From an uncultured Thermofilaceae archaeon (GTDB lineage Archaea; Thermoproteota; Thermoprotei; Thermofilales; Thermofilaceae), in assembly GCA_964489665.1 (NCBI GenBank), contig CAZAZN010000003.1:28192-60191 (forward strand): a stretch of 32,000 nucleotides of DNA, in the 5' to 3' direction. Under the pieces are notes generated by a model, which did no database searches, was not told where the DNA came from, and saw only the letters and a program-made list of their open reading frames with translations. A program made the translations under genes and the position numbers. Below, in pieces: positions 4,966-23,383 of the stretch. Positions within the stretch are counted from its first letter, which is position 1. Each line of letters opens with the position of its first letter.

Positions 4966-5007
4966 GCGTTAGAGCGCGAGAACTAGAGCTGAGAAGCTAG
5001 AAGATGG

Positions 5008-5835: not shown

Positions 5836-5932
5836 CAGGAAATTTATACTCCCTACCTAACCTCAAGGCCCTCCTAAAATTCTTTGTCTCGACGAATTCA
5901 GGCGGCTAAGCGTTACGCTCGGGGGCCGTCTC

Positions 5933-6946: not shown

Positions 6947-7088
6947 CGCCTAGCCTCGCGCTAACTATCCGGGGCTTTTAGTTAACGTTACCCTAGCTCG
7001 CTGGCATGCGGCAGCTTACCTAACCAAAGTAGGTCTGCCGTATTAGGGACACTAAATTTATATGCTTATCGGCGAAAACCTATTTCTG

Positions 7089-7997
7089 ATGTCCGAAGAA
7101 GGCTTCAAGAAGATAATGGTGTTCTTGTCCACCGACGTTCACCCCTCCCCCTTCGACGTGCTGTTCGCTTACGATACCGGCGTGGACGCCGTCGTGTACT
7201 ACGGCGGTGTAACCGCCGAGACCGCGGGCTCGCTTATACTAGATACCATGTTCCCTAGGGGGCCCGAGGGGCTGAAGTACACGGTAGTGTTCATAGGGGG
7301 GAAGAACTACGACGAGTGCCTTAAGATTGCGGAGGTCGCCAAGAAGACCTACTTCAAGCCCTTCGTGGCCTCGACCATAGTCGACCCCGCGGGCGCTTTC
7401 ACAACGTCATCGGCCGTAGTCGTCAAGGTGTCCTCCTGCCTAAAGGCTAAGGGCTTCGACCCCGCTAAGGCTAAGTACACGGTCCTAGGGGGAGCCGGGA
7501 GGGTCGGCCGCTGCATCGCCTACCTTCTCGCCAAGCTCGGCGCCACGGTCGTTATCGGCGACGTGCTCGTTGAGGGAGCTAAGGAGAGGGCTAGGGAGAT
7601 AAACGAGAAGGTTGGGGCGGAGAGGGCGATCGCGTTCGAGAAGGCGACCGATAAGCCCGAGAACGTGCTGGAGGCCTGTAAGGATTCGACGGTGGTCATC
7701 ACGGCGGGACCTCCCGCCAAGACCCTGCTACCGCTGGACGTCCTAACCAAGCTTGAGAGCTGCGTGCTGGTAGCGGACATTAACGCGACGCCGCCGTACG
7801 GCGTCGAGGGGATAAAGCCGACCTACGACTGCAAGGCCATGAAGAAGCTACCTAGGGTCACCGCCATCGGCGCACTCGCTATAGGCAGCTTTAGGAACAA
7901 GGTCCAGAGGGCCCTCATCAGGAAGGCGTTCGAGACCCCGGGAGCGTTCTTCGGGCTCGACGAGGCGTTTGAAGTAGCCCGTAGCCTAGTTAGCTAG
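7089..7997 (+). CDS. MtdA/MtdB-type NAD(P)-dependent methylene-tetrahydromethanopterin dehydrogenase
   Basis: The N-terminal STDVHPSPFDVLFAYDTGVDAVVYYGGVT, VVFIGGKNYDECLKIAEVAKKTYFKPF, IVDPAGAFTTSSA and the Rossmann VLGGAGRVGRCIAYLLAKLGATVV match my recollection of methylotroph MtdA. The track ORF starts at 7062, but TATA-like TAAATTTATA (7053-7062) overlaps that ATG. The in-frame ATG at 7089 fits a leaderless transcript better. Confidence 0.75.
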   Translation: MSEEGFKKIMVFLSTDVHPSPFDVLFAYDTGVDAVVYYGGVTAETAGSLILDTMFPRGPEGLKYTVVFIGGKNYDECLKIAEVAKKTYFKPFVASTIVDPAGAFTTSSAVVVKVSSCLKAKGFDPAKAKYTVLGGAGRVGRCIAYLLAKLGATVVIGDVLVEGAKERAREINEKVGAERAIAFEKATDKPENVLEACKDSTVVITAGPPAKTLLPLDVLTKLESCVLVADINATPPYGVEGIKPTYDCKAMKKLPRVTAIGALAIGSFRNKVQRALIRKAFETPGAFFGLDEAFEVARSLVS

Positions 7998-8010
7998 CTC
8001 CCGGCTCTAG

Positions 8011-8022
8011 ATTTTTCTCTTT
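8011..8022 (+). terminator. Oligo-T terminator-like tract after the mtd-like gene
   Basis: TTTTTCTCTTTT lies 14 nt after the stop codon at 7995-7997. Confidence 0.4.
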
Positions 8023-8085
8023 TCAACCTTTAAGTAGGGGAGCGGAAGCTATCTAAGTAGCCGGGCGCGTTGGTAGGCGCTTGGG

Positions 8086-9006
8086 ATGGGGAGGCGAGGG
8101 AGCGGCAGGAGGACGCGTAGGAGCGCTCGGGCAAGGTACTTAGCTAGGAGGGTTAGGACCAGCTACTGGAGGCCCGGGTGCAACTACCTCGAGGCCATAG
8201 TTAAGGCGCTTAGGAAGGTGAAGCTTAGGGACGGGGACATCGTGGTGGTCTCGGAGAAAGCTATCTCGGTAGCCGAGGGCAATATCGTGGATGAGAGCGG
8301 GATAAGGCCTAGCCTACTGGCGAGGCTAATAGCCAAGTACTGGATGAGGCTCGTATGGGGCTACCTACTCGGCGTCCTCAGCGGGCTGAGCAGGAGGACC
8401 CTCTACAACCTGCGAAACTACCCCTTAGAGCTAGGTGCTCGCCACAAGGAGCTAGCCCTTAGGCTCACGTCCCCCCTCCAAGCCCTCTCCTTCGGCTCGG
8501 AGGGGGGCATCGACGGATCTAACCTCCCGTACTCCTACGTAGCCCTCCCGCTTAGAGACCCCCAGGCGGTTGCTGAGAGGATAAGGAGCTATATTAGGGA
8601 GAGGCTTGGCAGGGACGTCGTAGTCGTCATCTCGGACTCCGATAGGTGCTACTCGTGGAGGAGCTTCCACATAACCCCAAGGCCGACGGCTGTTAAAGGC
8701 ATCAAGTCGGCTGGTGGCTTCTTAACCTACGTGATCTGCAACTTCCTTAAGCTAAGGTCCCATCCCACGCCCGTCGCTGTAGCGGGCGGAGACTTCAGCA
8801 TTGAGGAGCTTCTAACAGTAACGGCTATCGCGGAGAGGCTTAGGGGGCATGGCGCTGGGAGGGACGTGTGGGAGATGGCGAGGAGGTTCGGGACCTCCCT
8901 AGATGGCGTCACCTGGGAAATGCTGGAGAGCATCCCCCACTACCCGATAGTCGTTGTTAGGCGAATTCCGAGAAAAAGAGCGGAACGCAAAAAGCTAGGG
9001 GGTTAA
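8086..9006 (+). CDS. CofE-like (F420-0:gamma-glutamyl ligase family) protein
   Basis: 306 aa with LRDGDIVVVSEKAISVAEGN, SEGGIDGSNLP and VVVISDSDRCYSWR, corresponding to the CofE-family blocks DGD..VV.SK..SKAEGR, GIDASN and V.I.DT.GR. Confidence 0.65.
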   Translation: MGRRGSGRRTRRSARARYLARRVRTSYWRPGCNYLEAIVKALRKVKLRDGDIVVVSEKAISVAEGNIVDESGIRPSLLARLIAKYWMRLVWGYLLGVLSGLSRRTLYNLRNYPLELGARHKELALRLTSPLQALSFGSEGGIDGSNLPYSYVALPLRDPQAVAERIRSYIRERLGRDVVVVISDSDRCYSWRSFHITPRPTAVKGIKSAGGFLTYVICNFLKLRSHPTPVAVAGGDFSIEELLTVTAIAERLRGHGAGRDVWEMARRFGTSLDGVTWEMLESIPHYPIVVVRRIPRKRAERKKLGG

Positions 9007-9710
9007 GCCCCGGCCTCTATCCCGAGGACGCGCATCGCCTTAAGGAGGGATACGCCAACTAGCGACGCGATCGCCGTCATGAGTAGCCTCTCGGCCACCG
9101 AGATGGGGAGGACGGCCATGAACAGCGCGGGAAGCCCGGGGATGCTCTCAACCGGCATGAACAGCCCAGCGAACTGTATGAAGGCGAGATTCCCGTACAT
9201 GTGATCCGCCATTAAGCCGCAGTAGCTCACCAGCGGAACTAGGTACTCAGTCCTAGCCCTCTTAGGGAGCTTCCACAGGGCTAGCGCTAGGGCGAGCGCT
9301 ACGATGTGCGGCACCGGGTACAGCGGAGCGGCCCTACCTACCCACGTGGCGTACCAGCCCGCGACTAGAGCCCCAAGGATGCAGGGCGCGGCGGCCCGCC
9401 TATACGGGCTCCCTCCGCGGGAGCTCGCAAGCCCCGCTACTAGGCTCGATATCACGGGCGCTGGGAGGAAGAGGAGGCCTATCGGGGTCGGCGTGCCTGA
9501 GGGTAGCACGAGCGCTATAGAGGTGCCTACTAGGGCTGCTAGCGCCCCCTTCCAGGGCCCCAGCGCTATCCCGAATACCGGCGCGATCGAGGCTGCCAGG
9601 TTTATCCTCCCCTTACCCCCTATGATCGGGATGCCGGGGATCAGCGTTAAGACGGCGTACGTCGCTGCTAGCACCGAAATCATGGACACATCCTTTGCCC
9701 TAAGCTTCAT
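9003..9710 (-). CDS. Integral membrane protein, ECF-transporter S-component-like (cofactor or precursor uptake candidate)
   Basis: 235 aa with about 6 predicted helices. The N-terminus KDVSMISVLAATYAVLTLIPGIPIIGG...INLAASIAPVFGIALGPWKGALAALVG resembles substrate-capture components. A BRE/TATA lies 27 bp upstream (leaderless). Confidence 0.45.
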   Translation of the reverse strand: MKLRAKDVSMISVLAATYAVLTLIPGIPIIGGKGRINLAASIAPVFGIALGPWKGALAALVGTSIALVLPSGTPTPIGLLFLPAPVISSLVAGLASSRGGSPYRRAAAPCILGALVAGWYATWVGRAAPLYPVPHIVALALALALWKLPKRARTEYLVPLVSYCGLMADHMYGNLAFIQFAGLFMPVESIPGLPALFMAVLPISVAERLLMTAIASLVGVSLLKAMRVLGIEAGA

Positions 9711-10387: not shown

Positions 10388-11362
10388 GTGAGCGGGATGT
10401 CGGCCGAAGGGTGGAGGAGGGCTAGCGCTAGGATAGCGCGGAGGGTGGCTAGGTGTGCTCAGCTAGCCATGCTCCTCGAAGTTAGCGCCTATCCTAAGCC
10501 CGGCAACGTGCACAGGCTGAGGGATTTCAGGGAGACTAGGTACGAGCACTTCCTAGTGTCCTCCTGCATAGCTGCCGACTACTTCCGCGCGGCCGCCATT
10601 AGGGGGCTAAAGGCAAGTGTCGGGCTACTCGACTTTAGCGAGATCGGCGTTGGGAGGCTAATCGAGGCCTGCATGAGGGAGGTCATTCGGGAGCAGCGAG
10701 GCGGCAACACCTGCCTAGGGACGGTCACGATGCTAATGCCCCTAAGCGCGGCTAGCGCGTTAACGATGCTCGAAGGCGGCGACATGTATGGCGACCTGAG
10801 GGCTAACCTCTCCCTCGTGCTAAGGTCTACGACGCCGCGGGACGCGGTAGCGTTCTACAACGCGATTAAGGTGGCTAAGCCTAACATCGGGAGGTCTAAG
10901 TGGCTTGACGCGTTCGACGAGTCGTCTAAGAGGGTTATCCTGGAGAGGGGCATTACGCTATACCAGATATTCGAGTACGCGTCTAAGTACGATACCGTAG
11001 CTAGGGAGTGGGTTACGGACTTCGAAGTAACATTTAAGCTAGGAGCCCCTTACATGCAGAAACTGCTAGATGAGGGGTATGATATAAACGCAGCCATCGT
11101 ACACACCTTCCTAAAGATACTGTCAGAGATACCGGATACTCTGATCGTTAAGAAGGCGGGCCTAGAGAAGGCGCTCGAGGTGTCGAGGATGGCGAGGGAG
11201 GTTCTCGAGGCTGGGGGCTTAAGGACTCAGGAGGGCAGGAGGCTCCTAGCCGATATGGACTTCAAGCTAAGGGAGGAGGACCACCTGCTTAACCCGGGAA
11301 CGACGGCTGATATCACGGCGGCTAGCATAATGCTAGTCCTGTTGAGGGGCATGAAGTTTTAG
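10388..11362 (+). CDS. CitG-family (triphosphoribosyl-dephospho-CoA synthase-like) protein
   Basis: 324 aa. The CitG/MdcB hallmark N-terminus ALLLEVSAYPKPGNVHR appears here as AMLLEVSAYPKPGNVHRLRDF, followed by GGNTCLGTVTMLMPL and LNPGTTADITAAS. Alternative start ATG at 10397. Confidence 0.75.
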   Translation: MSGMSAEGWRRASARIARRVARCAQLAMLLEVSAYPKPGNVHRLRDFRETRYEHFLVSSCIAADYFRAAAIRGLKASVGLLDFSEIGVGRLIEACMREVIREQRGGNTCLGTVTMLMPLSAASALTMLEGGDMYGDLRANLSLVLRSTTPRDAVAFYNAIKVAKPNIGRSKWLDAFDESSKRVILERGITLYQIFEYASKYDTVAREWVTDFEVTFKLGAPYMQKLLDEGYDINAAIVHTFLKILSEIPDTLIVKKAGLEKALEVSRMAREVLEAGGLRTQEGRRLLADMDFKLREEDHLLNPGTTADITAASIMLVLLRGMKF

Positions 11363-11378: not shown

Positions 11379-12434
11379 TCAACGGGGCAGAAGGGGGACT
11401 ACGTAGCTCTGTGGCACCTCTAGGGAGCCCACCACGACCCTGTAGTACCTGTGGCCGCGCTTGTCAACTACCTCCTCCAGCTTACCCCTGAAGCGCACCC
11501 TCTCGCCCTCGTAGAGGACGCCGGAGAATATCCCCTCGAAGGAGACTATCTCGAGTATCTCGCCCACGTCCTCGCCGTGCTTAACGGCTACGTCCTCGAC
11601 CCTGTACAGGGCTGGCAGGAACAGCGACTCCGAGCTATCGGATATCGTGGCGCGCCCCTCTACCTCGCCTAGAGACCTGTACACCCTGTCGCCGTACCTC
11701 TCCCTTACCTCGCAATCCTTCCTAACGGCATGGATTGAGAAGTACCTCCCCCTGTAAACGCCGTAGTTCCATCTCCTCCTAGCTATCTCGAGCAGCTCCC
11801 TAGGGCTGATGCCAGCGTCCCTCGCGTGCTCCACGCTCCACCTCCTCAGGTAGTCCTCGCTTAGCGGCTTTACGGGCGATCGGGGGTCGAGCAGCGCCCC
11901 TCTTACGAACTCCTCGACCCTCCGCATGTTCTCCGCGCCGTACACCACTAGGTCTATGTCCGAGAGGGCTGGATTGTGTATCCCAAGGAGGGTTGAGCCG
12001 GTAACTCCCATATCCCTCGGGTCAACGCCAGCCTCCCGCGCTATCCAGCTAGCGAGCGACGCAACGTCCCTCTCCAGCGGGTCCCCGCCGCCTGAGGCTA
12101 GGATCTCCCTTAGCCTGTCCTCGGGCGCGTAATGCCTCTTAACGTACTCTCTAGGGACCATGGACATCCTTATCCCCCTTATGGGGCAGTAGTGCAGGTA
12201 GTGGGGGTACCGCTCTTCGAGAAGCTTGAAGCTCTCCCCCACTTGGACGACGTGGTACCTCTTGATGATCCTCTCGTACTTAACGCTCCCCCTCCTCCAT
12301 ATCCTTCCCGAGGCGGATGGAACGTACTTCAGGTAGGCCGTGTACTTCCCGGGCGGGTGCAGGTACCCTACGACGCAGAAGAATAGCCCCTCAACGGTCT
12401 CCAGGTAGTCCTTATCCTTCACGAGCCTACCCAC
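11379..12434 (-). CDS. Uncharacterised pol-beta-type nucleotidyltransferase family protein (paralogue 3 of 4)
   Basis: 351 aa with EGLFFCVVGYLHPP, GVTGSTLLGIHNPALSDIDLVVYG, and SDSSESLFLPALYRVE...GERVRFRGKLEEV. Its GTG start directly abuts the stop of paralogue 4 (12435), indicating translational coupling. Confidence 0.8.
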   Translation of the reverse strand: MGRLVKDKDYLETVEGLFFCVVGYLHPPGKYTAYLKYVPSASGRIWRRGSVKYERIIKRYHVVQVGESFKLLEERYPHYLHYCPIRGIRMSMVPREYVKRHYAPEDRLREILASGGGDPLERDVASLASWIAREAGVDPRDMGVTGSTLLGIHNPALSDIDLVVYGAENMRRVEEFVRGALLDPRSPVKPLSEDYLRRWSVEHARDAGISPRELLEIARRRWNYGVYRGRYFSIHAVRKDCEVRERYGDRVYRSLGEVEGRATISDSSESLFLPALYRVEDVAVKHGEDVGEILEIVSFEGIFSGVLYEGERVRFRGKLEEVVDKRGHRYYRVVVGSLEVPQSYVVPLLPR

Positions 12435-13499
12435 TCACTCCACCCGCTCCAAGGGGTACATAACGTCGTCGGCGTACTCCCCTAGCAACAGCCTGCAGAA
12501 GCGTCGACCCTTCTCCTCCACAACCTCGACTACGCCTCTCGCCAGCACCCTCTCGCCCTTAACGGCCTGCTCGCAGAACCTACCCCTAAACGAGGCGACC
12601 TCGAGCAGCGGGTAGGGAATGGAGCCCTCTAAGACCTCTACATCATCTACGAGGTACCTGCAGGGGGTGAATATCGAGTCCCCATCGTCAACTACCCTCG
12701 CAACTACCGTCGCTCGCCCAGCCCTGCGGTAAACCCTCTCCCCGTACCTCTCCCCGAACTCCCCAGGCCGCTTAACTAGCCTGATATAGAAGTCCCTACC
12801 CTTAAAGACCCCCTCCAGCACCTTCCTCCTCTCAACCCTCAGGAACTCCCTCAACGGCATGCGCGTATCTCGAGACCTAAACTCGTAGAGCTTGAGCAGC
12901 TCCTCCTCCCTATAGGCCCTCAGCTCGCCCTGGTCCGTCAAGACATCCTTAAGGTAGGAGTACAGTAGCCTACCCTCCCTCTCCCCGTAGACCACCAGGT
13001 CTATGTCGGAGCCCTCGGTGTGTAGCCCCACTAGGAGCGAGCCGCTAACTCCCATCGACTCCAGCTCAACTCCGGACGAGGATAGGCGCTCGGCTAGCCC
13101 TCGCGCAAGCTCCTCGAGCCCATCCCTAGCCCCCCGCTCTACGATCTCCCTTAGCCTAGAGGTTGGGCTGTACACGCGCCTTATCCTAGACAGGGGCACG
13201 GCTTGAAGCCAGCGGTTGAAGAACTTGTCGAAGTACATGTACTCGGGGAACCTGCTCCTGATAACCTCCTCCCTCCTCAGGAGGCTGTAGACCTTAGCGT
13301 AGCGCGTCCCGTCAGGCCCCACCCTGCTACCGCGCGGGTCCGGCACGTACCTAACGTAGGCTACGACCCTATCCGGCGGGTGGAGAAGGCCCTTAACGTC
13401 GAAAATCAGGCGGTCAACGGTCTCCAGGAAGTACCCCTCAATAGGCCTCTCGCCTAGGGTCTCGGCGGCTGATCTTTCCCCCAAGCCGATGGCACCCAT
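12435..13499 (-). CDS. Uncharacterised pol-beta-type nucleotidyltransferase family protein (paralogue 4 of 4)
   Basis: 354 aa with DRLIFDVKGLLHPP, GVSGSLLVGLHTEGSDIDLVVYG, and DDGDSIFTPCRYLVD...GERVLARGVVEVV. Its ATG lies 2 nt after the ftr stop. Confidence 0.8.
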   Translation of the reverse strand: MGAIGLGERSAAETLGERPIEGYFLETVDRLIFDVKGLLHPPDRVVAYVRYVPDPRGSRVGPDGTRYAKVYSLLRREEVIRSRFPEYMYFDKFFNRWLQAVPLSRIRRVYSPTSRLREIVERGARDGLEELARGLAERLSSSGVELESMGVSGSLLVGLHTEGSDIDLVVYGEREGRLLYSYLKDVLTDQGELRAYREEELLKLYEFRSRDTRMPLREFLRVERRKVLEGVFKGRDFYIRLVKRPGEFGERYGERVYRRAGRATVVARVVDDGDSIFTPCRYLVDDVEVLEGSIPYPLLEVASFRGRFCEQAVKGERVLARGVVEVVEEKGRRFCRLLLGEYADDVMYPLERVE

Positions 13500-13501
13500 C
13501 C

Positions 13502-14430
13502 CTACTCGGGCGGGGCGAGCTTCTCCCTGGCCTTCTCGACGGCTTCTCGAAGCCCTATCTTGTAGGGGCCAAGCTTCCCCCCGAAGTTCGCGGCGGATAT
13601 CTTCCTAACCCCCTTAACCCTAGCCGCTGCGAGGGCCGCTACCCCCATGGCGAGCGCTACCCGGTCGGCGCTTAAGCCGTTGATGACTATCTCGTACACG
13701 CACCTTACGCCCTCGGGGACGAGGGAGCCGGGCACCTTATCCCTGAGCGTGGGGCAGAGGAGGTGGTTAGTGTAGCTCTAAGCTTAGGGTACTTGAGCGA
13801 GCCGACCTTAGACCCGGACCTGACGATCCCGCCGGGAAAGGGCGTTATAACCCCCCTGACGTGCCTCCTAATGGCCCTGACGGCCTCTTCAGCCGCCCTA
13901 AGGCCGGCCTCCAAGCTCTCCGAGAGTATTATCACGTTCCCGCCAGCAACCCCCTTCACCACCCCAACGGTGTCCTCTACCAGGAACTCCCCCTCCATCA
14001 CGGGGATATGCCACATGGTCCGCCCGTAGTCCTCTCGCTTGTACTCGAAGCCGTCCCCAAACTTAGCGAGCGACGAGCCCAGCCGCATCCTCCTCTTCGC
14101 CTTAGGTAAAGCGTCGAACAGCGCGGTTGTGGGGCACGTGAGCACGCACTGCCCCACCCTACTCAGGAGCTGCAGCTTAAGCTCGGGTATCGTGCGGTGG
14201 TAGAGCTGGACTATAACCCCCGGCCTGCCGTCCGGGGTAGCGTTGCTGGAGACAAAGCACTCGACGCCGCCCTCCGCGGGGCACATTATTATCGAGGTCG
14301 CGAACCCGACCGCCTCAAGGGCTGCCGTTAGCGCCCACCTCCTGCTAGCGGCCGTGATCAGCAGCCTACACGCGTACATGGGAAAAGCCTCCGCGAACGT
14401 ATCCTCGACCTCAACCCTGTTTACGATCAT
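13502..14430 (-). pseudogene. ftr: Formylmethanofuran:H4MPT N-formyltransferase (Ftr) interrupted by a 1-nt frameshift
   Basis: ORF 13705-14430 carries the Ftr N-terminal and central part: VEDTFAEAF, LITAAS, IMCPAEGG, TPDGRPG, GQCVLTCPT, IPVMEGEF, GVAGGN, PFPGGIVRSGSKVGS. ORF 13502-13735, in another frame, carries the Ftr C-terminus: PEGVRCVYEIVINGL...ISAANFGGKLGPYKI. The frames switch at about 13772-13776. Confidence 0.85.
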
Positions 14431-14477: not shown

Positions 14478-14515
14478 GAAAAGAGGGAACAGAAGGGAAA
14501 AACTAGGAGAAAAAG
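14478..14515 (-). terminator. Oligo-T archaeal terminator-like tract downstream of the 613-aa gene
   Basis: On the minus strand, T5 (revcomp of 14510-14514), T5 (14498-14502) and T4 (14479-14482) start 6 nt after the TAA stop at 14522-14524. Confidence 0.45.
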
Positions 14516-14521
14516 GGATTT

Positions 14522-16363
14522 TTAGTAGGATGGGAGAACGTCGTGCTTCTCGGTGCAGAGGGCCTCGTAGATCTTCTTAGCGAGCCTCGCTACCTCCCTG
14601 GCCCTCTCCTTGCCTCCAGGTATGGCGCAGGTTAGGTAGGCTCCCTTCTCAGCCCTCTTAGCGGCCTCCTTCGGGTCCATTCCCAGTATCGCGGCGACGG
14701 CCGCCGGGATCGTGATGTTGATTATCGTGTGGCCGATGTAGGCGAGCTCTTGCATTAGGACGGCGCCAGCCATTAGCGCGATGCTGTACTCCTCCGGAGT
14801 AACGCCCTCCGGCACCTTGCCCTCAAGGACGAACTCGGGAATCGCCTTAGCGCACAGGTTCTCGACGTGTATCTTCTTCCCATCGATCGTGACATCATAG
14901 CTCACGAAGCTGTCAAAGCCCCAGTACTTCTTCGTGAACTTGTCAGTCCTCCTAGCCTGCGGCCTAATCTCGGTGAACTTAAGCTCTATCTTCTTGCCCG
15001 TGAAGGCGCTTAGTATTGCGGAGCCCCTCTTCTCCACGTACTCCTTCCTCTCGTCGTCTAGCTCCCTAGCGACTTCCTCCACGCTCTTCCCGGCCTTCAG
15101 GCCCTCGTAAACCTTCACAGCCCTCCTGTAGATCGCCCTATCCCTGATGTCCGTCGTGGCTACGATTATCGCCTTAGTGACCGGGCCCCTCATCACCTCC
15201 TCGGCCTTCCTAGCGATCGTGTTAGCGGCGCATATAGCCATCTCTGGGTCTATGTAGGACCTTAGCTTGTACTTCTTAATCTCCTCGGCAGCCGCGTAGA
15301 CGTCGCCCTTAAACTTGAGCAGGAGCCTCATCGCGGGGACTACGTCGCCACACAGGTGGCCACACGGCGCGTTCACGGGACCTCCGCTGAAGCCAGCGCC
15401 TATTATCGGGGCCTCCTCGAAGCCTGCGAATATCTCGTTTAGGGCCATAGCGCCTAGCGTGCTTATGCCGCCTATGTCCTTTAGTATTAGGCCGAAGTCG
15501 CCTATGACCCTAGCCGTGTCGAACTCCTCGCCAGTGCCCTTAAGGTGTAGCTTCTCGGGGAGCTTAGCGGCCTCGACGGCGCCCTTACCCGCCATGTAGG
15601 CCGCGTCCACTGTGCCAAACGGCCCGTACTCCTCCCCGACGAACGCGTCCGGGTGGACTATCTCTAGGGTCACGGCGCAGGCGATTAGGCACGGCCACAG
15701 CGGGTACGGGGTGATGCCGGCGCCCTCCATGGCCCTCATCATGGCCTCGGTGCCTACCTTAGCGGCGTTCTTGCACAGCTCGGGTATCACGATGTCCTCT
15801 CCAAGGGCGCTGTGTCCCCACGGGCTGCCTCCCGCTATGAACGGCGGTAGCTTAGCGCCGTCAACCCGAGTGAGCTTTTTGTCCATTAGGGCCTCATATA
15901 TCGCCTTGTAAGCGGCGAAGGCCGAGACCCTATTACTGAACTTGTTGGTGATTAGGGCTATTGCGCTAGTCCTAGTGGCGCCAGCGTACATCCTAGCTAG
16001 CGCTCCCAGCTTCCTGTTAGCCATGGGTACTCCAGCTCTCGCGGCAGCGCCAGCGAAGTAAGCTAAAGCTGCCACTATTAGTGCGGCGTTAGATGGGGCG
16101 GCGCCAGCGTTCTTAGCGGCTTCGACAGCGTTCTTTATGATCGTGTCGAGAGGTATCCGCGGAGCAGCGGCGTCAGTTAGCTCGGGGCTTAGGCCCGATA
16201 GTATATCTATCATTATGGAGTTAGCGGCGCAGAAAACGGGGATGACAAGGCTCCCGTGGCCCTTGGTAGCGGCCTCAAGGCGGTCATTAGTCATTAAGTC
16301 GGGCTTAAAAGTAACGGCGGCAAGCGTAGCCAGGAGCACTCGTTCCCTCTCAACTTGGCTCAT
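14522..16363 (-). CDS. Conserved-looking 613-aa protein of unknown function (orphan in the C1/Lar island)
   Basis: This is the longest ORF in the window, with uniform codon usage matching its neighbours. It has its own BRE/TATA, a G-rich SD-like leader and an oligo-T terminator. It is soluble and Ala/Gly-rich (for example GFSGGPVNAPCGHLCGDVVPAMRLL). I recognise no family motif. Confidence 0.85.
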   Translation of the reverse strand: MSQVERERVLLATLAAVTFKPDLMTNDRLEAATKGHGSLVIPVFCAANSIMIDILSGLSPELTDAAAPRIPLDTIIKNAVEAAKNAGAAPSNAALIVAALAYFAGAAARAGVPMANRKLGALARMYAGATRTSAIALITNKFSNRVSAFAAYKAIYEALMDKKLTRVDGAKLPPFIAGGSPWGHSALGEDIVIPELCKNAAKVGTEAMMRAMEGAGITPYPLWPCLIACAVTLEIVHPDAFVGEEYGPFGTVDAAYMAGKGAVEAAKLPEKLHLKGTGEEFDTARVIGDFGLILKDIGGISTLGAMALNEIFAGFEEAPIIGAGFSGGPVNAPCGHLCGDVVPAMRLLLKFKGDVYAAAEEIKKYKLRSYIDPEMAICAANTIARKAEEVMRGPVTKAIIVATTDIRDRAIYRRAVKVYEGLKAGKSVEEVARELDDERKEYVEKRGSAILSAFTGKKIELKFTEIRPQARRTDKFTKKYWGFDSFVSYDVTIDGKKIHVENLCAKAIPEFVLEGKVPEGVTPEEYSIALMAGAVLMQELAYIGHTIINITIPAAVAAILGMDPKEAAKRAEKGAYLTCAIPGGKERAREVARLAKKIYEALCTEKHDVLPSY

Positions 16364-16400
16364 GATACCCCCCGGTGCCGCTATTTATCGGTTGCTCGAC

Positions 16401-16417
16401 AAATATAAACATTTGCA
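16401..16417 (-). promoter_or_regulatory. BRE/TATA promoter of the 613-aa gene
   Basis: The minus strand reads TGCAAAT-GTTTATATTT, with the TATA centre about 42 nt upstream of the ATG at 16363. GGGGGG (revcomp of 16368-16373) serves as an SD-like element in a short leader. Confidence 0.5.
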
Positions 16418-16605
16418 CACAATCACCGATGTGTCGGTATTACTATTTTACGAATTCGTAATACCATTGGCCAACTATCTTTCTCGTTTCGAATATATAT
16501 GCAACATAATACAAGGAAATTCGGTTAGCTCAATCGAGCTACGACTACGTTGTAGTGGGGATTACCAAGCATTTTAGATCTTAGGCTGCGGCTTTTAAGC
16601 TAGTG

Positions 16606-17844
16606 CTAGTAGCTTTTATAGCCCTTCTCCCTAAGCTCGTGCTCTACGATCTCCGCGACCCTCCTCAGAGGGATGCCCAGCTCCTTCGCTACCCTCTTTA
16701 AATCCTCGTACTCCGGCTTTACGTTAACAACCTTCCCGTACGGGGTCTTCGAGGTCTTAACCCTAATGTAGTACGTCCTCCCCTGAATAGACAGCTTAAC
16801 GACCTCCTTAGACCTGGCGGCAACGATCCTAGGCACCTCGAGCACGCGTACTCCTAGCGTTCCAGTCTCTTCCATCAAGACGTCCACGAGCCTGGCGTAG
16901 TCCCCCGGTCTGCACAGCACTTTAACTATGTGCACCGGCCTGTTCTTCTTGCCCGTAGCTGGGATTATCGAGACGTCTAGCGCCCCCTCCTCCATTAGCC
17001 TGCCGACTAGGTAGCCTAGCACCTCGCCCGTTACGTCATCTAGGTTGGTCTCTAGGACGATTATCTTGTCGCGAACCGCCTTACGGGTTTGCCCCACGAC
17101 CACCCTTAACACGTTCGGTACCCTCCCGTAGTCCTCGGGTCCCGCCCCATAGCCAACCCTCTCGAGGGCTAGGGGCGGGTAGAACTCGACGATTGTGCTC
17201 GTGAGGTTCGCGAGGAGGGCTGCGCCTAGGGGCGTTGTTAGCTGAGACTTCACGGGCGCGCTGGAGAACGCGTACCCGTGAATCGACAGTATCTCTAGGG
17301 TTAGCGGGTGAGGTACTGGGACCAGGCCGGGCCCTGGGACCACCCTAAACCCCCCGCCCAAGGCTGGGGGAGTCGTATAGACCTCCACGCCCTCGCCGAA
17401 CGCGCCAATCTCGTCGAGCAGGGCGGCGGCTCCCGCGATGAATAAGAGGGCCTTAGCCGGGTAAGGCTCTAGGAGCTGGAGCGACGTAGTCCCGTACACC
17501 CTGGAGAGCGCGCTTACTAGGTCGTCGAACACCCGCAGCGAGTACTCCCTAGCTTTAGCCGATAGGCCGGCGTCCTCAGCGATCTTCGCGAGGATCGCCC
17601 TAAACTCCTCCGCGGATGGGGAGCTGCCCTCCCTGCTGACGGACACGCTTAGGGCTTTAGCCCTAATGCCCCCTCTTTCGACCTCCACTAGATTTATGGC
17701 TAGGCGGTTGCGGACCGCCTTAGCCTCAATAATCCCTGCGAGCTCCTGAAGCCTCTCGTAGCTGGCGCCAGCGTCCACAAGGGCAGCTAGGAGCTTAGCC
17801 TCGGTAGCGCCCGAAATTCTAGGGTCTACTACGATCGTCCTCAT
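16606..17844 (-). CDS. larC: Full-length LarC-family protein with a degenerate N-terminal metal-site domain and a canonical C-terminal (LarC2-like) domain
   Basis: 412 aa. The C-terminal ETNLDDVTGEVLGYLVGRLMEEGALDVSIIPATGKKNRPVHIVKVL...ETGTLGVRV...KPEYEDLKRVAKELGIPL matches the LarC C-domain. At the N-terminus, GISGDM is replaced by RISGATEAK, and the HxHE..D..DI.G block is replaced by LQLLEPYPAKALLFIAG. Confidence 0.85.
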   Translation of the reverse strand: MRTIVVDPRISGATEAKLLAALVDAGASYERLQELAGIIEAKAVRNRLAINLVEVERGGIRAKALSVSVSREGSSPSAEEFRAILAKIAEDAGLSAKAREYSLRVFDDLVSALSRVYGTTSLQLLEPYPAKALLFIAGAAALLDEIGAFGEGVEVYTTPPALGGGFRVVPGPGLVPVPHPLTLEILSIHGYAFSSAPVKSQLTTPLGAALLANLTSTIVEFYPPLALERVGYGAGPEDYGRVPNVLRVVVGQTRKAVRDKIIVLETNLDDVTGEVLGYLVGRLMEEGALDVSIIPATGKKNRPVHIVKVLCRPGDYARLVDVLMEETGTLGVRVLEVPRIVAARSKEVVKLSIQGRTYYIRVKTSKTPYGKVVNVKPEYEDLKRVAKELGIPLRRVAEIVEHELREKGYKSY

Positions 17845-18057: not shown

Positions 18058-19794
18058 ATGCAGCTTAAGCTCACGCTCATAACCGGTAGGAGCCTTAGCC
18101 AGGGCGTGTCTGTCGAGGACAAGTTCGAGAGGGAGTACCTCGAGAGCGTTGCCGTTGCAGCGCTTGACGAGGACGATATGAAGAGGCTGGGGGTGCGGGA
18201 GGGGGGCCGCGTTAAGATCAGGTCCGCGTTTGGGGAGGTTGTCGTCAGGGCTGTTAGGTCAAAGCTCCCCTGCAAGGGAGTCGTGTTCGTGCCCATGGGG
18301 CCTTGGGCTAATGCACTCACAAGCCCTTACACGGATGGTTCGGGGATGCCCACGCTTAAGGGGCTAGAGGTGGAGGTAGCTCCAACGGATGAGGAGGTAA
18401 CGCCCGTCGAGCGGCTCCTAGCTGGGATGGGTAGGCGCCCTTTAAAGGCCGTGGAGGCTAGCGGCGCGGAGGACCCCGAGGGCGTTGAGGGGAGGAAAGT
18501 GGTGAGGCACTTCGTCTGCAGCTTCTGCGGCTGTTTATGCGACGACCTCGAGGTCGTGGTCTCTAGGGGCAGGGTTGTCGAGGTAAGGGGGGCGTGCCCC
18601 CTTGGTAGAGCCAAGATACTGGGCTACGCTAGGAACAGGATCCTACACCCCTACGTTAGGGAAGGGAACGGGTTAAGGAGGGTTAGCTTAAAGGAGGCCG
18701 TTAGGAGGGCGGCAGAGATACTGGTTAACGCTAAGTACCCGCTGCTCTTCGGCTGGAGCTCTACGTCCGTGGAGGCGATTGAGAGGGGGCTCGAGCTAGC
18801 CGAGCTCGTCGGAGGGGTTATGGATAACACTAGCGTGATATGCCACGGCCCCACGATACAGGCGCTTCAGGAGGTGGGGCTCGTTACGTCGACGCTAGGG
18901 CAGGTCAAGAACTTCGCGGACCTGATCATCTACTGGGGCTGCAACCCGCTTGAGGCCCACCCGAGGCACATGTCCAGGTACAGCGCGATGGCGCGCGGAG
19001 TGTACAGGAGGTCTAGGAGAGAGAGGAAGGTCGTGGTCGTGGACGTTAGGCGCACGAGTACGGCTAGGCTCGCCGACGTGTTCGTAAAGGTGGAGCCTGG
19101 ACGCGACTACGAGCTCATAAGCGCGCTCAGGATGGCCGTAAGGGGGCTTGACATAGAGCGCGACGAGGTGGCTGGAGTCCCCGTGGAGCAGGTCTACGAG
19201 CTGGCCGAGATTATGATGAGCTGCAGGTTCGGCGTTGTATTCTACGGCCTAGGCGTCACCATGACGGCTGGGAAGAGCAGGAACGTCGAAGAGCTCTCTA
19301 GGCTAGTCCAGGACCTGAACGAGTGGACGAAGTTCGTCCTCATAGCTATGAGGGGACACTACAACGTTACCGGCGCTAACCAGGCGTTCACCTGGACTAC
19401 GGGGTACCCCTACTCGGTGGACTTTAGCAAGGGCTACCCGAGGTACAACCCCGGCGTTACCAGCGCGACCGACCTGCTGCTTGAGGGAAGCGTCGACGCG
19501 GCGCTGATAGTGGCGTCCGATCCCATCGCCCACCTGCCTAGGGAGTGCGTTAGGCACCTGCTCGAGATCCCGCTCATAACCATCGACCCGAAGTGGAGCC
19601 TTACGGCCTCCGTGTCCGACGTGATCATACCGTCAGCGGTAACGGGCGTTGAGTGCGGCGGTACGGCGTACAGGATGGATAAGGTGCCCCTAAGGCTGAA
19701 GAAAGCCGTCGACCCGCCCAAGGGGGTGCTCCCCGACTACGAGGTCCTCGAGATGATCATCTCGGAGGTTAGGAGGCTAAAGGGCGCGGGGTGA
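18058..19794 (+). CDS. fwdB: Formylmethanofuran dehydrogenase, fused subunits D (N-terminal) and B (C-terminal)
   Basis: 578 aa. Residues 1-115 form an FwdD-type pterin-capping barrel: LTLITGRS..QG, GGRVKIRSAFGEVVVRA, VFVPMGPWAN. From about residue 150 the sequence is FwdB: the Fe-S motif CSFCGCLCDD...GACPLG, and the active-site region DNTSVICHGPT with Cys rather than Sec. An SD-like GGAGAGGAGG lies upstream. Confidence 0.85.
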   Translation: MQLKLTLITGRSLSQGVSVEDKFEREYLESVAVAALDEDDMKRLGVREGGRVKIRSAFGEVVVRAVRSKLPCKGVVFVPMGPWANALTSPYTDGSGMPTLKGLEVEVAPTDEEVTPVERLLAGMGRRPLKAVEASGAEDPEGVEGRKVVRHFVCSFCGCLCDDLEVVVSRGRVVEVRGACPLGRAKILGYARNRILHPYVREGNGLRRVSLKEAVRRAAEILVNAKYPLLFGWSSTSVEAIERGLELAELVGGVMDNTSVICHGPTIQALQEVGLVTSTLGQVKNFADLIIYWGCNPLEAHPRHMSRYSAMARGVYRRSRRERKVVVVDVRRTSTARLADVFVKVEPGRDYELISALRMAVRGLDIERDEVAGVPVEQVYELAEIMMSCRFGVVFYGLGVTMTAGKSRNVEELSRLVQDLNEWTKFVLIAMRGHYNVTGANQAFTWTTGYPYSVDFSKGYPRYNPGVTSATDLLLEGSVDAALIVASDPIAHLPRECVRHLLEIPLITIDPKWSLTASVSDVIIPSAVTGVECGGTAYRMDKVPLRLKKAVDPPKGVLPDYEVLEMIISEVRRLKGAG

Positions 19795-19798
19795 GAGC

Positions 19799-21493
19799 TT
19801 GGAGCTTCTGATTAGGAACGGGTACGTCTACGACCCAATCAACGGCGTAAGGGGCGAGGTAATGGACATCGCCATAAAGGACGGGAAGATAGTGGAGGAC
19901 AGCGAGATTAACCTGAGGAAGGCCAAGGTCATCGACGCCTCGCACAAGGTCGTCATGCCCGGGGGCGTCGACATACACTCGCACATAGCTGGGCCTAAGG
20001 TTAACGTCGGAAGGATGATGATGGTTAGCGACCACTACCGGAGCTTCATGAGGGCTAAGCCGCCAATCAGGAGGTCGGGGACCGGGAAGTACACCCCCAG
20101 CACCTACCTCACCGGGTACAGGTACGCTAGGATGGGGTGGACCATGGCGGTCGAGCCCGCGTCGCCGCCGCTGAAGACGAGGCATACACACGAGGAGCTG
20201 AACAGCATCCCGATACTGGATAAGGCCGTGCTCGTGCTCGTCGACTCCAACAGGCTCCTCCTACGCTACCTGAGCGGGGGAGACCTAGACCGCTGTAAGG
20301 AGTTCCTGAAGTGGCTCCTAGCGGCGACTAAGGCGTATGGCGTAAAGCTAGTAGACCCCGGCTCCGCGGTCCTCTGGAGCCTTGGCAGGGAGGGGCCGAG
20401 CATAGACGACGTAATAGAGCCTTACGGCATAACCCCGAGGGAGATAGTTAGGGGGCTATGCAGGGTCGTTAGCGACCTAAAGCTCCCCCACGCTGTACAT
20501 GTTCACTGCAACCGCCTAGGAGTCCCGGGAGGCTACGCCGACGCGATCGAGACCGTTAAGACAGCTCCGCCCTCCGACAGCGTAAACCTTCACCTAGCGC
20601 ACCTCCAGTTTAACTCTTACGCGGGAGACGACTGGTCAAGCATGGAGAGCGGCGCAGAGGAGGTTGCGAAGCTGCTAAACTCTCGCAGCAACGTTAGCCT
20701 AGATATCGGGCAGATAGACTTCGGGACAGCCATCACCATGACGGCCGACGCGCCGTTCGAGTTCGCGCTCTACCACATCGCCAGGTGGAAGTGGGCTGGC
20801 GCTGACGTCGAGGCCGAGGCGGCCTCCGGAATAGTTCCTTACAAGTATAAGAAGAGGAACTACGTGAACGCCCTCCAGTGGTGCATAGGGCTCGAGCTAG
20901 CCCTGCTCGTAAGGGATCCGTGGAGGGTCGTGTTATCCACGGACCACCCGAATGGAGCGCCCTTCACCAGGTACCCGAAGATCATCGCCCTGCTGATGAG
21001 CAGGAGGTTTAGGGAGAAGGTCATGGAGAAGCTGAACAGGGCCGCTCTGAAGCGGAGCGCCCTTCCCTCGATCAACCGCGAGTACGACCTCTACGACGTC
21101 ACGATAATCACGAGAGCGGCTCCGGCGAAGCTACTCGGCCTCGACGCGTTTAAGGGGCACCTAGGCGTGGGAGCTGACGGCGACGTGGCGATATATGACA
21201 TCGACCCAGAGCGCGTTGACCCCTCTAGGGACTTTGAGCGGATAGTCAGGGCCTTTAAGCGGGCGAAGTACACAATTAAGGACGGCACGGTGGTCGTTAA
21301 GAACGGCGAGGTAGTGAGGGCGGCGCTTGGCAGGACGTTCTACGTAAGCTTTGACGGGAGGCCTGGCGAAGGGCTAGAGGGAGAGATCCGTGAGTTCTTC
21401 AGGAAGTGGTACTCCGTAGAGCTCGAGAACTACGTGATAGGCGAGGATGAGCTTAGGAGGCCCTACCCGATTCGCTGCGGAGCGGCCGGGTGA
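19799..21493 (+). CDS. fwdA: Formylmethanofuran dehydrogenase subunit A (amidohydrolase)
   Basis: 564 aa with a TTG start 5 nt after the fwdDB stop. LIRNGYVYDP, VMPGGVDIHSHIAGPKVN and HVHCN are the typical FwdA metal-site motifs. Confidence 0.9.
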   Translation: MELLIRNGYVYDPINGVRGEVMDIAIKDGKIVEDSEINLRKAKVIDASHKVVMPGGVDIHSHIAGPKVNVGRMMMVSDHYRSFMRAKPPIRRSGTGKYTPSTYLTGYRYARMGWTMAVEPASPPLKTRHTHEELNSIPILDKAVLVLVDSNRLLLRYLSGGDLDRCKEFLKWLLAATKAYGVKLVDPGSAVLWSLGREGPSIDDVIEPYGITPREIVRGLCRVVSDLKLPHAVHVHCNRLGVPGGYADAIETVKTAPPSDSVNLHLAHLQFNSYAGDDWSSMESGAEEVAKLLNSRSNVSLDIGQIDFGTAITMTADAPFEFALYHIARWKWAGADVEAEAASGIVPYKYKKRNYVNALQWCIGLELALLVRDPWRVVLSTDHPNGAPFTRYPKIIALLMSRRFREKVMEKLNRAALKRSALPSINREYDLYDVTIITRAAPAKLLGLDAFKGHLGVGADGDVAIYDIDPERVDPSRDFERIVRAFKRAKYTIKDGTVVVKNGEVVRAALGRTFYVSFDGRPGEGLEGEIREFFRKWYSVELENYVIGEDELRRPYPIRCGAAG

Positions 21494-21497
21494 GAAC

Positions 21498-22358
21498 GTG
21501 GGGGTGCGCGTCTTAATAGTCTCGCCGAGAAGGAGGTTTAGGGTCCCAGTGGAGGCGGCGTGCCTATCGCCTGACAGGATCTCCGAGCTTACGCTAGAGG
21601 AGATCGAGCGCCTCAAGGCGTACGAGGGAAATAGGCTGGTTAAGCTAGGCGAGATCTTCCGCCTAAGAGAGGAAGGCGACGCCAGCTCCGACTCCGTTAG
21701 GCTAGTGCTGGAGGGGGACTTCGGGAAGGTATGGAGAATAGGCGAGGGTATGAAGTCGGGAGAGATAGTCGTGAAGGGCGACGTGGGCCACTTCTTAGGG
21801 TTTAGGATGGCGGGCGGCTCTATTCAAGTGCACGGCAACGCTGGCTCCTGGGTAGGCGCCGAGATGAGGGGAGGCGTAATCGAGGTTCACGGCAACGCTG
21901 GCGACCACGTCGGCGCAGTGCTTAGGGGCGAGAGGCCGTCAAAGGGGATGTGCGGCGGTACGATAGTAGTGCACGGCGACGTTGGAGCGGAGGCGGGCGC
22001 CGGGATGAGGAAGGGTGCCATAATAGTCAACGGCAACTGCGGGTACCTCCCAGGCGTGAACATGAGCGGGGGCAGCATACTGGTGAGGGGGAGCTGTAGG
22101 GGCAAGGCTGGAGCTAGGATGAGAGGAGGTAAGGTGGTCATATGCGGCCATGCCGGGGAGGTGCTGCCGACGTTTTACCTCGACGACGTCGTGGAGTCGG
22201 TTAAGGTTAAGGGGGAGAGGATCGAGGGCCCGTTCTACCTGTTCGTAGGCGACGTGCTCGGCGACGTAGGGTGTCTGGGCAGGCTGTACGTCTCGGTTAA
22301 GGGCAACAAGCACCTCAAGGCTCTAGCGGAGAAGCTACTAGGGTCGCGCTTTGGCTAA
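21498..22358 (+). CDS. fwdC: Formylmethanofuran dehydrogenase subunit C
   Basis: Reiterated glycine-rich beta-helix repeats: G.VG...G..M.GG.I.VHGNAG, repeated 6-7 times. The track ORF (from 21447) overlaps fwdA. In-frame GTG at 21498 or 21504, just after the fwdA stop at 21493, is the more likely start. Confidence 0.85.
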   Translation: MGVRVLIVSPRRRFRVPVEAACLSPDRISELTLEEIERLKAYEGNRLVKLGEIFRLREEGDASSDSVRLVLEGDFGKVWRIGEGMKSGEIVVKGDVGHFLGFRMAGGSIQVHGNAGSWVGAEMRGGVIEVHGNAGDHVGAVLRGERPSKGMCGGTIVVHGDVGAEAGAGMRKGAIIVNGNCGYLPGVNMSGGSILVRGSCRGKAGARMRGGKVVICGHAGEVLPTFYLDDVVESVKVKGERIEGPFYLFVGDVLGDVGCLGRLYVSVKGNKHLKALAEKLLGSRFG

Positions 22359-22417
22359 CCTTATTTGGCTCGCCGAGCCGCGAGAAAGCGAGCTTGCGCG
22401 AGCAGGGGCGGTAGGGG

Positions 22418-23383
22418 ATGGCGGTTAGCGTGAACAAGAGGGCCCTTAAGATACTGGAGGGGATGCTTAGCGAGGAGGATGCGCTGGGGATTAAGTCGTT
22501 TAGATCGAAGTGTGGCGCCACAGTGGTCGACTGCGGGGTTAAGGCCCCCGGTAGCTGTAGGGCGGGTATCTACGTTGCGGAGATATGCCTCGGCGGGCTC
22601 GCAAGCATATCGCTAACCCTTAAGGCTTATGGAGATCTAACCCTCCCGGCGATAGAGGAGGCGGTAGACTTCCCAGCTATAGCCTGTATGTGCTCGCAGT
22701 ACGCTGGGTGGAGGATAGCCTTTAAGGGCTTTAGAGGGCTAGGCTCGGGGCCTGCGAGGGCGCTAGCCCTCAAGCCTAGGAAGCTCTTCGAGAAGATAGG
22801 GTATCGCGACTCATCGGACGAGGCAGTGCTCGTCTTAGAGGCCGACGAGTACCCTCCCGACGGGGCACTAGCCGCGATAGCGGAGGTGTGTCATGTCGAT
22901 CCGGAGAACCTGTACGTCCTGGTCGCCCCCACCAATAGCGTCGTCGGCTCGATCCAGGTTAGCTGCAGGGTCGTTGAGACGGGCATCCACAGGCTGGACG
23001 TCCTAGGCTTCGACGTGAAGCGCGTAGAGCAGGGTTTGGGGAGGTGCCCGGTGGCCCCCCTCCACCCCGACCCCACGATCATGATGGGGCTCGCTAACGA
23101 CGCCCTGATATACGCTGGCGAGGTGTTCCTAACGGTCTCGTTCCAGGATGACTCGGAGCTCGCAAGCCTCGTGCGCGAGGCCTCCTCCACAACCTCGCCG
23201 AGCTACGGAAAGCCCTTCTACGAGATATACAGGGAGGCGGGCTTCGACTTCTACAGGATCGATCCGAGGATATTTGCTCCCGCCAGCATAACCGTGCTGA
23301 ACAGGGCTTCGGGGAGGGTGTTTAGGAGCGGGCGCGTAGATGCAGGGTTGCTGGCGAACTTCTGGGAGAGGTACCTCTCCTAG
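22418..23383 (+). CDS. mch: Methenyl-H4MPT cyclohydrolase
   Basis: 321 aa with VSVNKRAL, TVVDCGVKAPG, AGWRI, GLGSGPARALALKP, DPENLYVLVAPTNSVVGSIQVSCRVVETG, SPSYGKPFYEIY and DFYRIDPRIFAPA. It is collinear with archaeal Mch. Confidence 0.9.
   Translation: MAVSVNKRALKILEGMLSEEDALGIKSFRSKCGATVVDCGVKAPGSCRAGIYVAEICLGGLASISLTLKAYGDLTLPAIEEAVDFPAIACMCSQYAGWRIAFKGFRGLGSGPARALALKPRKLFEKIGYRDSSDEAVLVLEADEYPPDGALAAIAEVCHVDPENLYVLVAPTNSVVGSIQVSCRVVETGIHRLDVLGFDVKRVEQGLGRCPVAPLHPDPTIMMGLANDALIYAGEVFLTVSFQDDSELASLVREASSTTSPSYGKPFYEIYREAGFDFYRIDPRIFAPASITVLNRASGRVFRSGRVDAGLLANFWERYLS

Follow-up and report, generated by a model that had tools for sequence, protein, structure and literature searches.

The stretch of DNA analysed here (hereafter the window; 32,000 nt of an uncultured Thermofilaceae archaeon, contig CAZAZN010000003.1 of assembly GCA_964489665.1, positions 28,192–60,191) carries on its minus strand a gene, here called X, that lies among genes for synthesis of NPN, the nickel-pincer nucleotide used as a cofactor, and genes for one-carbon (C1) transformations on tetrahydromethanopterin (H4MPT) and methanofuran (MFR). 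An initial annotation, made from the sequence alone, described X as the largest gene of the window, and with 613 aa it is indeed the longest open reading frame (ORF). Its neighbours are also those claimed, with Ftr and two nucleotidyltransferase (NTase) genes downstream and LarC, FwdD-B, FwdA, FwdC and Mch upstream. The gene and its expression signals are arranged as follows:

14522–16363, minus strand: gene X in the ORF list, ATG start and TAA stop, 1842 nt encoding 613 aa
16402–16417, minus strand: BRE/TATA-like promoter element read from the sequence, 46–54 nt 5′ of the ATG
16368–16373, minus strand: Shine-Dalgarno-like G6 run read from the sequence, 10 nt 5′ of the ATG
14479–14514, minus strand: archaeal terminator-like signal of three oligo-T tracts (T5, T5, T4)

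All the signals that the initial annotation had pointed out are present in the sequence. The promoter-like element is made up of TGCAAAT (16411–16417) and TTTATATT (16402–16409), and the three oligo-T tracts (T4–5) all fall within 43 nt past the stop codon, compared with two T4 and zero T5 tracts inside the whole 1842-nt ORF. Because a 242-nt spacer with its own TATA precedes X (41% GC, versus 59% in the ORF), it is plausible that X is monocistronic in the window, as had been proposed, although in most other lineages it is operonic with LarC. The same spacer contains a 13-nt inverted repeat at 16436–16465 (GGTATTACTATTT / AATTCGTAATACC, 85% complementary, with a 4-nt spacer), ~20 nt upstream of the BRE/TATA element, and a second, AT-rich palindrome at 16486–16505; either could be a regulator-binding site. 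The encoded protein is Ala/Gly-rich, as noted earlier (16.2% Ala, 8.3% Gly, with 24% charged residues), and is probably soluble, since just three hydrophobic sequence windows rise marginally above the Kyte-Doolittle threshold of 1.6.

Among the genes surrounding X, those for NPN synthesis are:

16606–17844, minus strand: full-length LarC (LarC1 plus LarC2), directly upstream of X, Pfam PF01969 at 296 bits
5008–5835, minus strand: LarB, NCBIfam NF033503 at 226 bits (cut-off 175), Pfam AIRC
4144–4965, plus strand: LarC1-only protein without LarC2, Pfam PF01969 positions 1–235 of 375, NCBIfam LarC1 at 186 bits
3144–3977, minus strand: LarE, a PP-loop sulfur transferase that serves NPN synthesis, 278 bits with NCBIfam TIGR00268 (cut-off 150)

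The full-length LarC matches both NCBIfam LarC2 (130 bits) and LarC1 (94 bits) above cut-off, so that the window holds a complete NPN biosynthetic set (LarB, LarE, LarC1 and LarC), all above the NCBIfam cut-offs, and no LarA. LarC modules are doubled or split here, with a LarC1-only gene at 4144–4965 besides the full-length LarC at 16606–17844. LarC is the NPN cyclometallase, with LarC1 as its N-terminal, nickel-inserting domain and LarC2 at its C-terminus. LarC2 is the hexameric, CTP-binding core of LarC, for which a 2026 cryo-EM study showed CMPylation of P2TMN to P2TCD, nickel being inserted on LarC1 after P2TCD has formed (PMC13510736). Known NPN users are the LarA family, the aldo-keto reductase NphT and an NPAD-dependent ornithine cyclodeaminase, and it was their position next to lar genes that brought the non-LarA users to light (PMC13524815). 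A survey of 29 Crenarchaeota genomes detected LarA homologs in none of them (PMC11770544 Table S1).

We examined the synteny of X by calling and then clustering ORFs in 80 species-level loci plus the window (81 loci, designated by L numbers). LarC (PF01969) is the only neighbour family common to every taxonomic group around X: in 73 of the 81 loci, X has an ORF of the LarC family no more than 2 kb away, and in the other eight a contig end is reached within 1.5 kb of X. In Methanomicrobiales, Methanotrichaceae and Archaeoglobi, full-length LarC comes next after X on the same strand (median gap, 0 nt), and in Thermoproteota LarC is upstream of X, often in the order LarB-LarC-LarE-X (L011, L015, L019). 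In Asgard archaea, an unclassified archaeon (L074), one further locus (L016) and all bacterial lineages, the partner of X is a stand-alone LarC2 of 160–200 aa, which covers positions ~246–371 of the 375 in PF01969, scores 34–68 bits with NCBIfam LarC2 and has no NCBIfam LarC1 match. Because these scores are far below the 127–130 bits of the LarC2 domains of full-length LarC, the stand-alone proteins may form a diverged subfamily. No LarC1 is visible within 6–9 kb of X in Asgard archaea and bacteria, and in L016 a full-length LarC (4555–5856) and an extra stand-alone LarC2 (7831–8322) flank X. The X-LarC2 pair is kept even in the most divergent bacterial members (36–44% identity; L094, L095, L096), in either gene order and in unrelated neighbourhoods. 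LarB also adjoins X in Asgard archaea, L074, Synergistota and Thermoproteota, with the order X-LarC2-LarB shared by Asgard archaea and Synergistota. Thus, X has a gene neighbourhood of the type found with NPN enzymes, with larB, larC and larE nearby. In a Methanotrichaceae metagenome-assembled genome (MAG; L021, 1491–9080), the X-LarC pair comes right after mcrA (the end of McrA is at 5815, the start of X at 5992), an order not seen in Methanothrix soehngenii (L001–L003) and one that may be coincidental.

The initial annotation recognised no known family in X, and this was borne out by searches of Pfam, NCBIfam and PDB sequences, but X is not the orphan it was said to be. There are at least 578 homologs (a lower bound), many of them 60–90% identical to X and those listed 56–91% identical over their full length. 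The archaeal ones, at 56–91% identity, belong to Thermoproteota, Methanomicrobiales, Methanotrichaceae, Archaeoglobi and Asgard archaea; those of anaerobic bacteria share 36–50% identity, the divergent members (36–49%) coming from Anaerolineae, Bacillota and Clostridiales MAGs. By GTDB species representatives, X occurs in 116 of 185,579 species: Thermoproteota, Archaeoglobi, Methanotrichaceae, many Methanomicrobiales and Asgard archaea (Odin, Thor, Promethearchaeota), with Synergistota and Anaerolineales as bacterial hosts at ~50% identity, and it is most abundant in Methanomicrobiales and Methanotrichaceae. An exhaustive hidden Markov model search of 1.84 billion cluster representatives gave 205 matches, with ~16 full-length clusters at 50% identity, and no distant superfamily. 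Pfam-A and NCBIfam yielded noise only when X was run through hmmscan at E ≤ 1 (DUF643, 0.35; carot_isom, 0.094), as did PDB sequences with a 38-sequence profile (a designed repeat protein and globins, E ≥ 0.035), and hhalign of segments against each other revealed no internal duplication. Members of the family are mostly named 'hypothetical protein' in public records, and the family appears to be undescribed in the searchable literature, where we found no account of it under an NPN link to methanopterin or Fwd or under a LarC-associated archaeal protein; a digester preprint considered as a source on bacterial X clusters proved irrelevant. In the same inter-phylum genome pairs, identity is 63–73% for X versus 33–44% for the adjacent LarC and, by this sequence measure, X is under much stronger constraint than LarC. 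Two contigs are probably mis-binned: L053 (DIVU01000002.1), binned as Desulfuromonadaceae, has an X 66% identical to the query and within the residue range of Methanomicrobiales loci, and L014 (QMZY01000145.1), binned as Aenigmatarchaeota, has one 77% identical and in the range of Thermoproteota loci.

Modelling with AlphaFold2 from the family alignment, which had been proposed together with a Foldseek comparison in the initial annotation, gave a confident structure (pLDDT 90.6, pTM 0.91) that is almost wholly alpha-helical, with one small sheet at residues 459–500, and that Foldseek matched to no PDB fold. Low-pLDDT stretches are confined to residues 109–111 and 327–335, the latter being the main one, and both fall in two of the most conserved loops of the protein, GxxARxGVPxxNRKLG and GFSGGPVNxPxGH. 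The corresponding motifs in X are:

15344–15394 (codons), minus strand: motif GFSGGPVNAPCGHLCGD, residues 324–340, an invariant glycine-rich loop with His336 in which Cys is not conserved
15992–16051 (codons), minus strand: motif GxxARxGVPxxNRKLGAxxR, residues 105–124, with Lys118 near-invariant and Arg124 invariant

According to the model, invariant Lys, His, Arg and acidic residues sit in glycine-rich loops that AlphaFold leaves disordered, and we infer that the low-pLDDT conserved loops follow the pattern of ligand-binding loops modelled without their ligand. The first of the two motifs, which has the archaeal form FSGGPVNxPxGHxxxD, is the Cys/His patch that was earlier described as conserved-looking. 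The FSGGPVNxPxGH core and His336 (100% in alignment A1, 88% in A2) stand up to this description, but Cys334 and Cys338 do not, being kept in ~5% and 33–42% of aligned sequences respectively. Because none of the 10 cysteines of X is conserved, a Cys-based metal site, as had been envisaged, is unsupported. Conserved in at least 88% of sequences, bacterial members included, are K118, K141, K295, K386, H36, H184, H237, H273 and H336, and R124, R471, E234, E317, E374 and D484 are invariant. A further conserved His/acidic patch reads EIVHPDAxxGEE.

Gene X is also linked to H4MPT- and MFR-dependent C1 metabolism, for which the window encodes:

18058–23383, plus strand: C1 module of a FwdD-B fusion, FwdA, FwdC and Mch, recurrently linked to X elsewhere
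13502–14430, minus strand: Ftr (formylmethanofuran:H4MPT formyltransferase), Pfam FTR and FTR_C, with a frameshift near 13750
7062–7997, plus strand: MtdB-like, NAD(P)-type methylene-H4MPT dehydrogenase, Pfam Mpt_N, GxGxxG motif retained

In tblastn, residues 15–236 of a related Ftr aligned in frame −2 and residues 230–313 in frame −1, a split that reflects either an assembly error or a pseudogene. The general link of X to the H4MPT pathway drawn in the initial annotation was corroborated by co-directional operons that combine X with Mtd-like, Fwd, Ftr, Mch and H4MPT-biosynthesis genes in Anaerolineae, Synergistota, a Bacillota-like lineage, Thermoproteota and the unclassified archaeon. Thus, Anaerolineae (L090, L091) have one co-directional operon X-LarC2-Mtd(Mpt_N)-ATPgrasp-FwdD-FwdB-FwdA-Ftr-FwdC-Mch (in L090, the 5.6 kb upstream of the X locus lack substantial ORFs), and the Bacillota-like L092 has X-LarC2 followed by genes for a flavoprotein, a DHPS-like protein, DUF447, a GHMP-kinase-family protein, Mtd, an ATP-grasp protein and FwdD/B/A. 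The order in Synergistota is X-LarC2-SSF-LarB-NifX-like-ATPgrasp-FwdB, and in Thermoproteota and L074 the genes next to X include those for Mtd-like proteins, Fwd, Ftr and Mch (L004, L005, L010, L016, L017, L074 and the window). The MtdB-like gene recurs near X in non-methanogens (L004, L005, L017, L074, L087, L090, L092). Overall, X is linked to lar genes across archaea and bacteria, and often, though not universally, to H4MPT genes. Such H4MPT/methanofuran gene sets have been described in Synergistetes, Firmicutes, Chloroflexi and Thermoproteales, where their roles were called elusive, and the gene for X was not mentioned (PMC5020050). Other bacterial neighbours of X encode DUF2193 ('conserved in archaea'; L087, 2349–3881), a corrinoid/pterin methyltransferase system in which a URO-D, pterin-binding and B12-binding fusion accompanies RACo (L094, 13471–18115) and DUF3786 with NicX (L095, 2600–4377), all of them C1- or corrinoid-flavoured contexts.

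We consider X to be a candidate for a new, non-LarA NPN enzyme that would obtain its cofactor via LarC2 and employ it, in bound form, to shuttle hydride, a reading to which we assign a probability of about 0.5. The X-LarC synteny is the decisive evidence. Together with the universal adjacency of LarC or LarC2, the frequent presence of LarB and LarE nearby and the complete Lar set lacking LarA in the window, it favours the suggestion, already made in the initial annotation, that X is a client of the NPN cofactor. That X would be a dedicated client enzyme rather than a general maturation factor is indicated by its being far rarer than LarC and much more conserved than its LarC neighbour, by its richness in invariant polar residues and by its often opening metabolic operons; its occurrence in a mere 116 of the 185,579 GTDB species and in ~16 full-length clusters argues against a general biosynthetic factor. 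In the mechanism that we envisage, LarB, LarE and LarC would make the pincer precursor, LarC2 would pass it to X as NPN or in a CMP-linked form, and X would bind it through conserved Lys and His residues, for which K118, K295, H273 and H336 are candidates; the Ni-pyridinium would then serve as the bound hydride shuttle. To mature, X might be handed the CMP-activated pincer precursor directly by a LarC2 dedicated to it. The operon context tentatively points to a substrate from pterin-linked C1 metabolism, with methylene-H4MPT as the most plausible level. The likeliest substrate would be a C1 unit carried on H4MPT in the methylene, methenyl or methyl state, with neither F420 nor NAD(P) taking part in its conversion. 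X might then be a methylene-H4MPT reductase, dehydrogenase or dismutase that needs neither F420 nor NAD(P), or conceivably an H2-dependent enzyme akin to Hmd. That X acts directly on H4MPT-bound C1 units as a Ni-C organometallic enzyme is, however, a doubtful proposition.

Several points weigh against X being such an enzyme. Its strict pairing is with LarC2, not with any lar gene, which would fit a biosynthetic partner or subunit too, and nickel or NPN binding by X is a prediction from gene context and sequence. With regard to the substrate, the conserved neighbourhood in methanogens and Archaeoglobi is limited to the X-LarC pair and is silent on the matter, and the most divergent bacterial members (L094–L096) have no H4MPT genes nearby. 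The X-bearing methanogens presumably already have F420-dependent Mtd and Mer, and therefore a pathway gap does not explain the presence of X there. Asgard archaea, moreover, mostly have LarA as well (PMC11770544 Table S1).

Comparison with known systems places X apart from each of them. As with members of the LarA superfamily (NPN racemases/epimerases; DUF2088/Lar_N, COG3875), it is genetically coupled to larB, larC and larE and restricted in spread relative to the biosynthetic genes, and its conserved Lys and His might likewise provide a tether and a Ni ligand. Unlike them, X has no sequence match to DUF2088/Lar_N or the NCBIfam equivalents and no fold similarity, the LarA fold being alpha/beta whereas X is all-alpha and ~200 aa longer; it is, furthermore, coupled specifically and universally to LarC2, in a C1/pterin rather than a hydroxyacid context. 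A precedent for non-LarA folds with a pincer cofactor, also found via lar adjacency, is offered by the NPAD-dependent ornithine cyclodeaminase and by NphT, an NPN-dependent aldo-keto reductase in which the cofactor acts as a bound hydride shuttle and for which dinucleotide variants exist (PMC13524815, Nat Chem 2026). NphT is nonetheless a TIM-barrel aldo-keto reductase (PF00248) from an NAD(P) enzyme family, whereas X has no detectable relatives of any kind; Pfam revealed no PF00248 domain in it and its model is nearly all helical. The LarC2 hexamer has its natural partner in LarC1, to which the CMPylated precursor passes (PMC13510736), and X takes the place beside LarC2 where LarC1 is not adjacent. 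However, X is more than twice the size of LarC1, co-occurs with it in most lineages, and matches neither LarC1 nor LarC2 in Pfam or NCBIfam or by hhalign (profile A2 against the window LarC, probability 0.2%). Finally, the H4MPT hydride-transfer enzymes (Mer, F420-dependent Mtd, NAD(P)-dependent MtdA/B and Hmd) belong to the pathway to which X is operon-linked and catalyse the kind of reaction hypothesised for X, hydride transfer to or from a C1-H4MPT unit, but X shows no homology to them, without any match to the luciferase-like monooxygenase domain or the Mer equivalog in Pfam or NCBIfam, and it is also present in bacteria lacking H4MPT genes nearby. With Hmd and its Fe-guanylylpyridinol there is a precedent for action on methenyl-H4MPT by a nucleotide cofactor that is organometallic and derived from pyridine.

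The strict pairing with LarC2 could also mean that X is not a metabolic enzyme but the cofactor-assembly partner of LarC2, a less probable alternative. As such, X would accept the CMP-activated precursor P2TCD from LarC2. It would then take over nickel insertion from LarC1, as catalyst or as scaffold, or else keep the finished pincer cofactor, possibly as a cytidine-dinucleotide variant, in store and deliver it to another client. This would agree with LarC2 being specifically the invariant neighbour, always adjacent to X even in the Asgard archaea and bacteria that have no visible LarC1, and with the extra LarC2 that flanks X in L016 despite a full LarC, and the EIVHPDAxxGEE patch could be accommodated as well; LarC2, having CMPylated P2TMN, must pass its product to the nickel site (PMC13510736). 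The vast majority of LarBCE-containing organisms lack X, however, and in methanogens, Archaeoglobi and Thermoproteota X co-occurs with full-length LarC, where a substitute for LarC1 would be redundant. Moreover, no profile similarity links X to LarC, and 63–73% inter-phylum identity over 600 aa is unusual for a chaperone. It is rather improbable that X instead catalyses a step of methanopterin or methanofuran biosynthesis performed elsewhere by a non-homologous enzyme, with the help of either NPN or a CTP-activated intermediate that its LarC2-like partner would supply. In keeping with this idea, X heads the L092 operon with DHPS-like, DUF447, GHMP-kinase-family (which we take to be beta-RFAP-synthase-like), DmrB-like flavoprotein and MfnD-like ATP-grasp genes, genes for cofactor biosynthesis form an island in the window (RimK-like, CofE-like, CitG-like and NTase genes), and all archaeal hosts of X presumably use H4MPT and MFR. 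Yet the divergent bacterial loci L094–L096 show neither H4MPT nor MFR genes nearby, LarB/LarE adjacency indicates genuine NPN synthesis rather than a repurposed LarC2, and no known gap in the H4MPT/MFR pathways matches the taxa carrying X.

A stand-alone metalloenzyme that replaces Mer, with a metal or cofactor held by the Cys/His patch, was the other role put forward in the initial annotation, and it is unproven and disfavoured, with a quite low likelihood in our estimation. Although X adjoins an Mtd-like gene in several lineages, and neither the window nor the X-containing bacterial C1 operons showed a Mer (weak evidence, as this covers short flanks only), the two cysteines of the patch are not conserved (5% and 33–42%), X is commonest in Methanomicrobiales and Methanotrichaceae, which we assume to use canonical Mer, it matches neither the luciferase-like Mer family nor MetF in Pfam and NCBIfam, and its H4MPT link disappears in the most divergent members. 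Taken together, the observation made in the initial annotation is thus partly confirmed and its interpretation partly supported. As for the label 'methylthioribose-1-phosphate isomerase' (MtnA), given to several members (P0026, P0037, P0051, P0100 and others) by JGI/IMG and one NCBI record, X is almost certainly not this enzyme: it has no IF-2B/MtnA match in Pfam or TIGRFAM at E = 1 and no PDB sequence or Foldseek match to MtnA structures, most sources call it 'hypothetical protein', and the MtnA fold is alpha/beta, unlike the all-alpha X. The adjacent Mtd-like Rossmann protein was also considered as the true NPN client, which is unlikely given that it keeps the canonical GxGxxG, lacks an invariant His and thus resembles an ordinary NAD(P) enzyme. 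A relationship of X to the all-alpha CitG of the window was rejected (hhalign probability <1%).

Many archaea and bacteria make NPN yet lack LarA. A second fold using NPN, that of an aldo-keto reductase, was shown only in 2026, and X, with its extreme conservation, no detectable relatives and no solved-structure match, is a testable candidate for a third. X is present all through Methanomicrobiales and Methanothrix, to which much of the methane from digesters, wetlands and sediments is due, and anaerobic bacteria have acquired the family along with LarC2 and H4MPT genes. If X were an NPN enzyme of C1 metabolism, organometallic nickel chemistry would be joined to the methanopterin pathway, which could help to explain the 'elusive' role of H4MPT/MFR gene sets in non-methanogens; and were it to act on H4MPT-bound C1 units, the nickel-pincer cofactor would be at work in the central C1 pathway in methanogens, in Thermoproteota and Asgard archaea and in several anaerobic bacteria. 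Should X turn out to be a LarC2-dependent cofactor-handling protein, the current model of pincer-cofactor maturation would change.

The window has the make-up of a cofactor island, with genes for a RimK-type ATP-grasp protein, a CofE-like ligase (below cut-off), an energy-coupling factor (ECF)-transporter S-component-like protein and a CitG-like protein at 1117–1995, 8086–9006, 9003–9710 and 10388–11362. They are presumably similar to the 'orf' genes for H4MPT/MFR biosynthesis that methylotroph islands contain. Four paralogues of ~350 aa, all on the minus strand (2004–3062, 5933–6946, 11379–12434 and 12435–13499), alternate with the lar and H4MPT genes and match NTP_transf_2 weakly and no NCBIfam family. 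Three copies of this ~350-aa, NTP_transf_2-like family also lie beside LarB and X in L074 (1938–5041), and the paralogues may be cofactor-biosynthesis nucleotidyltransferases.

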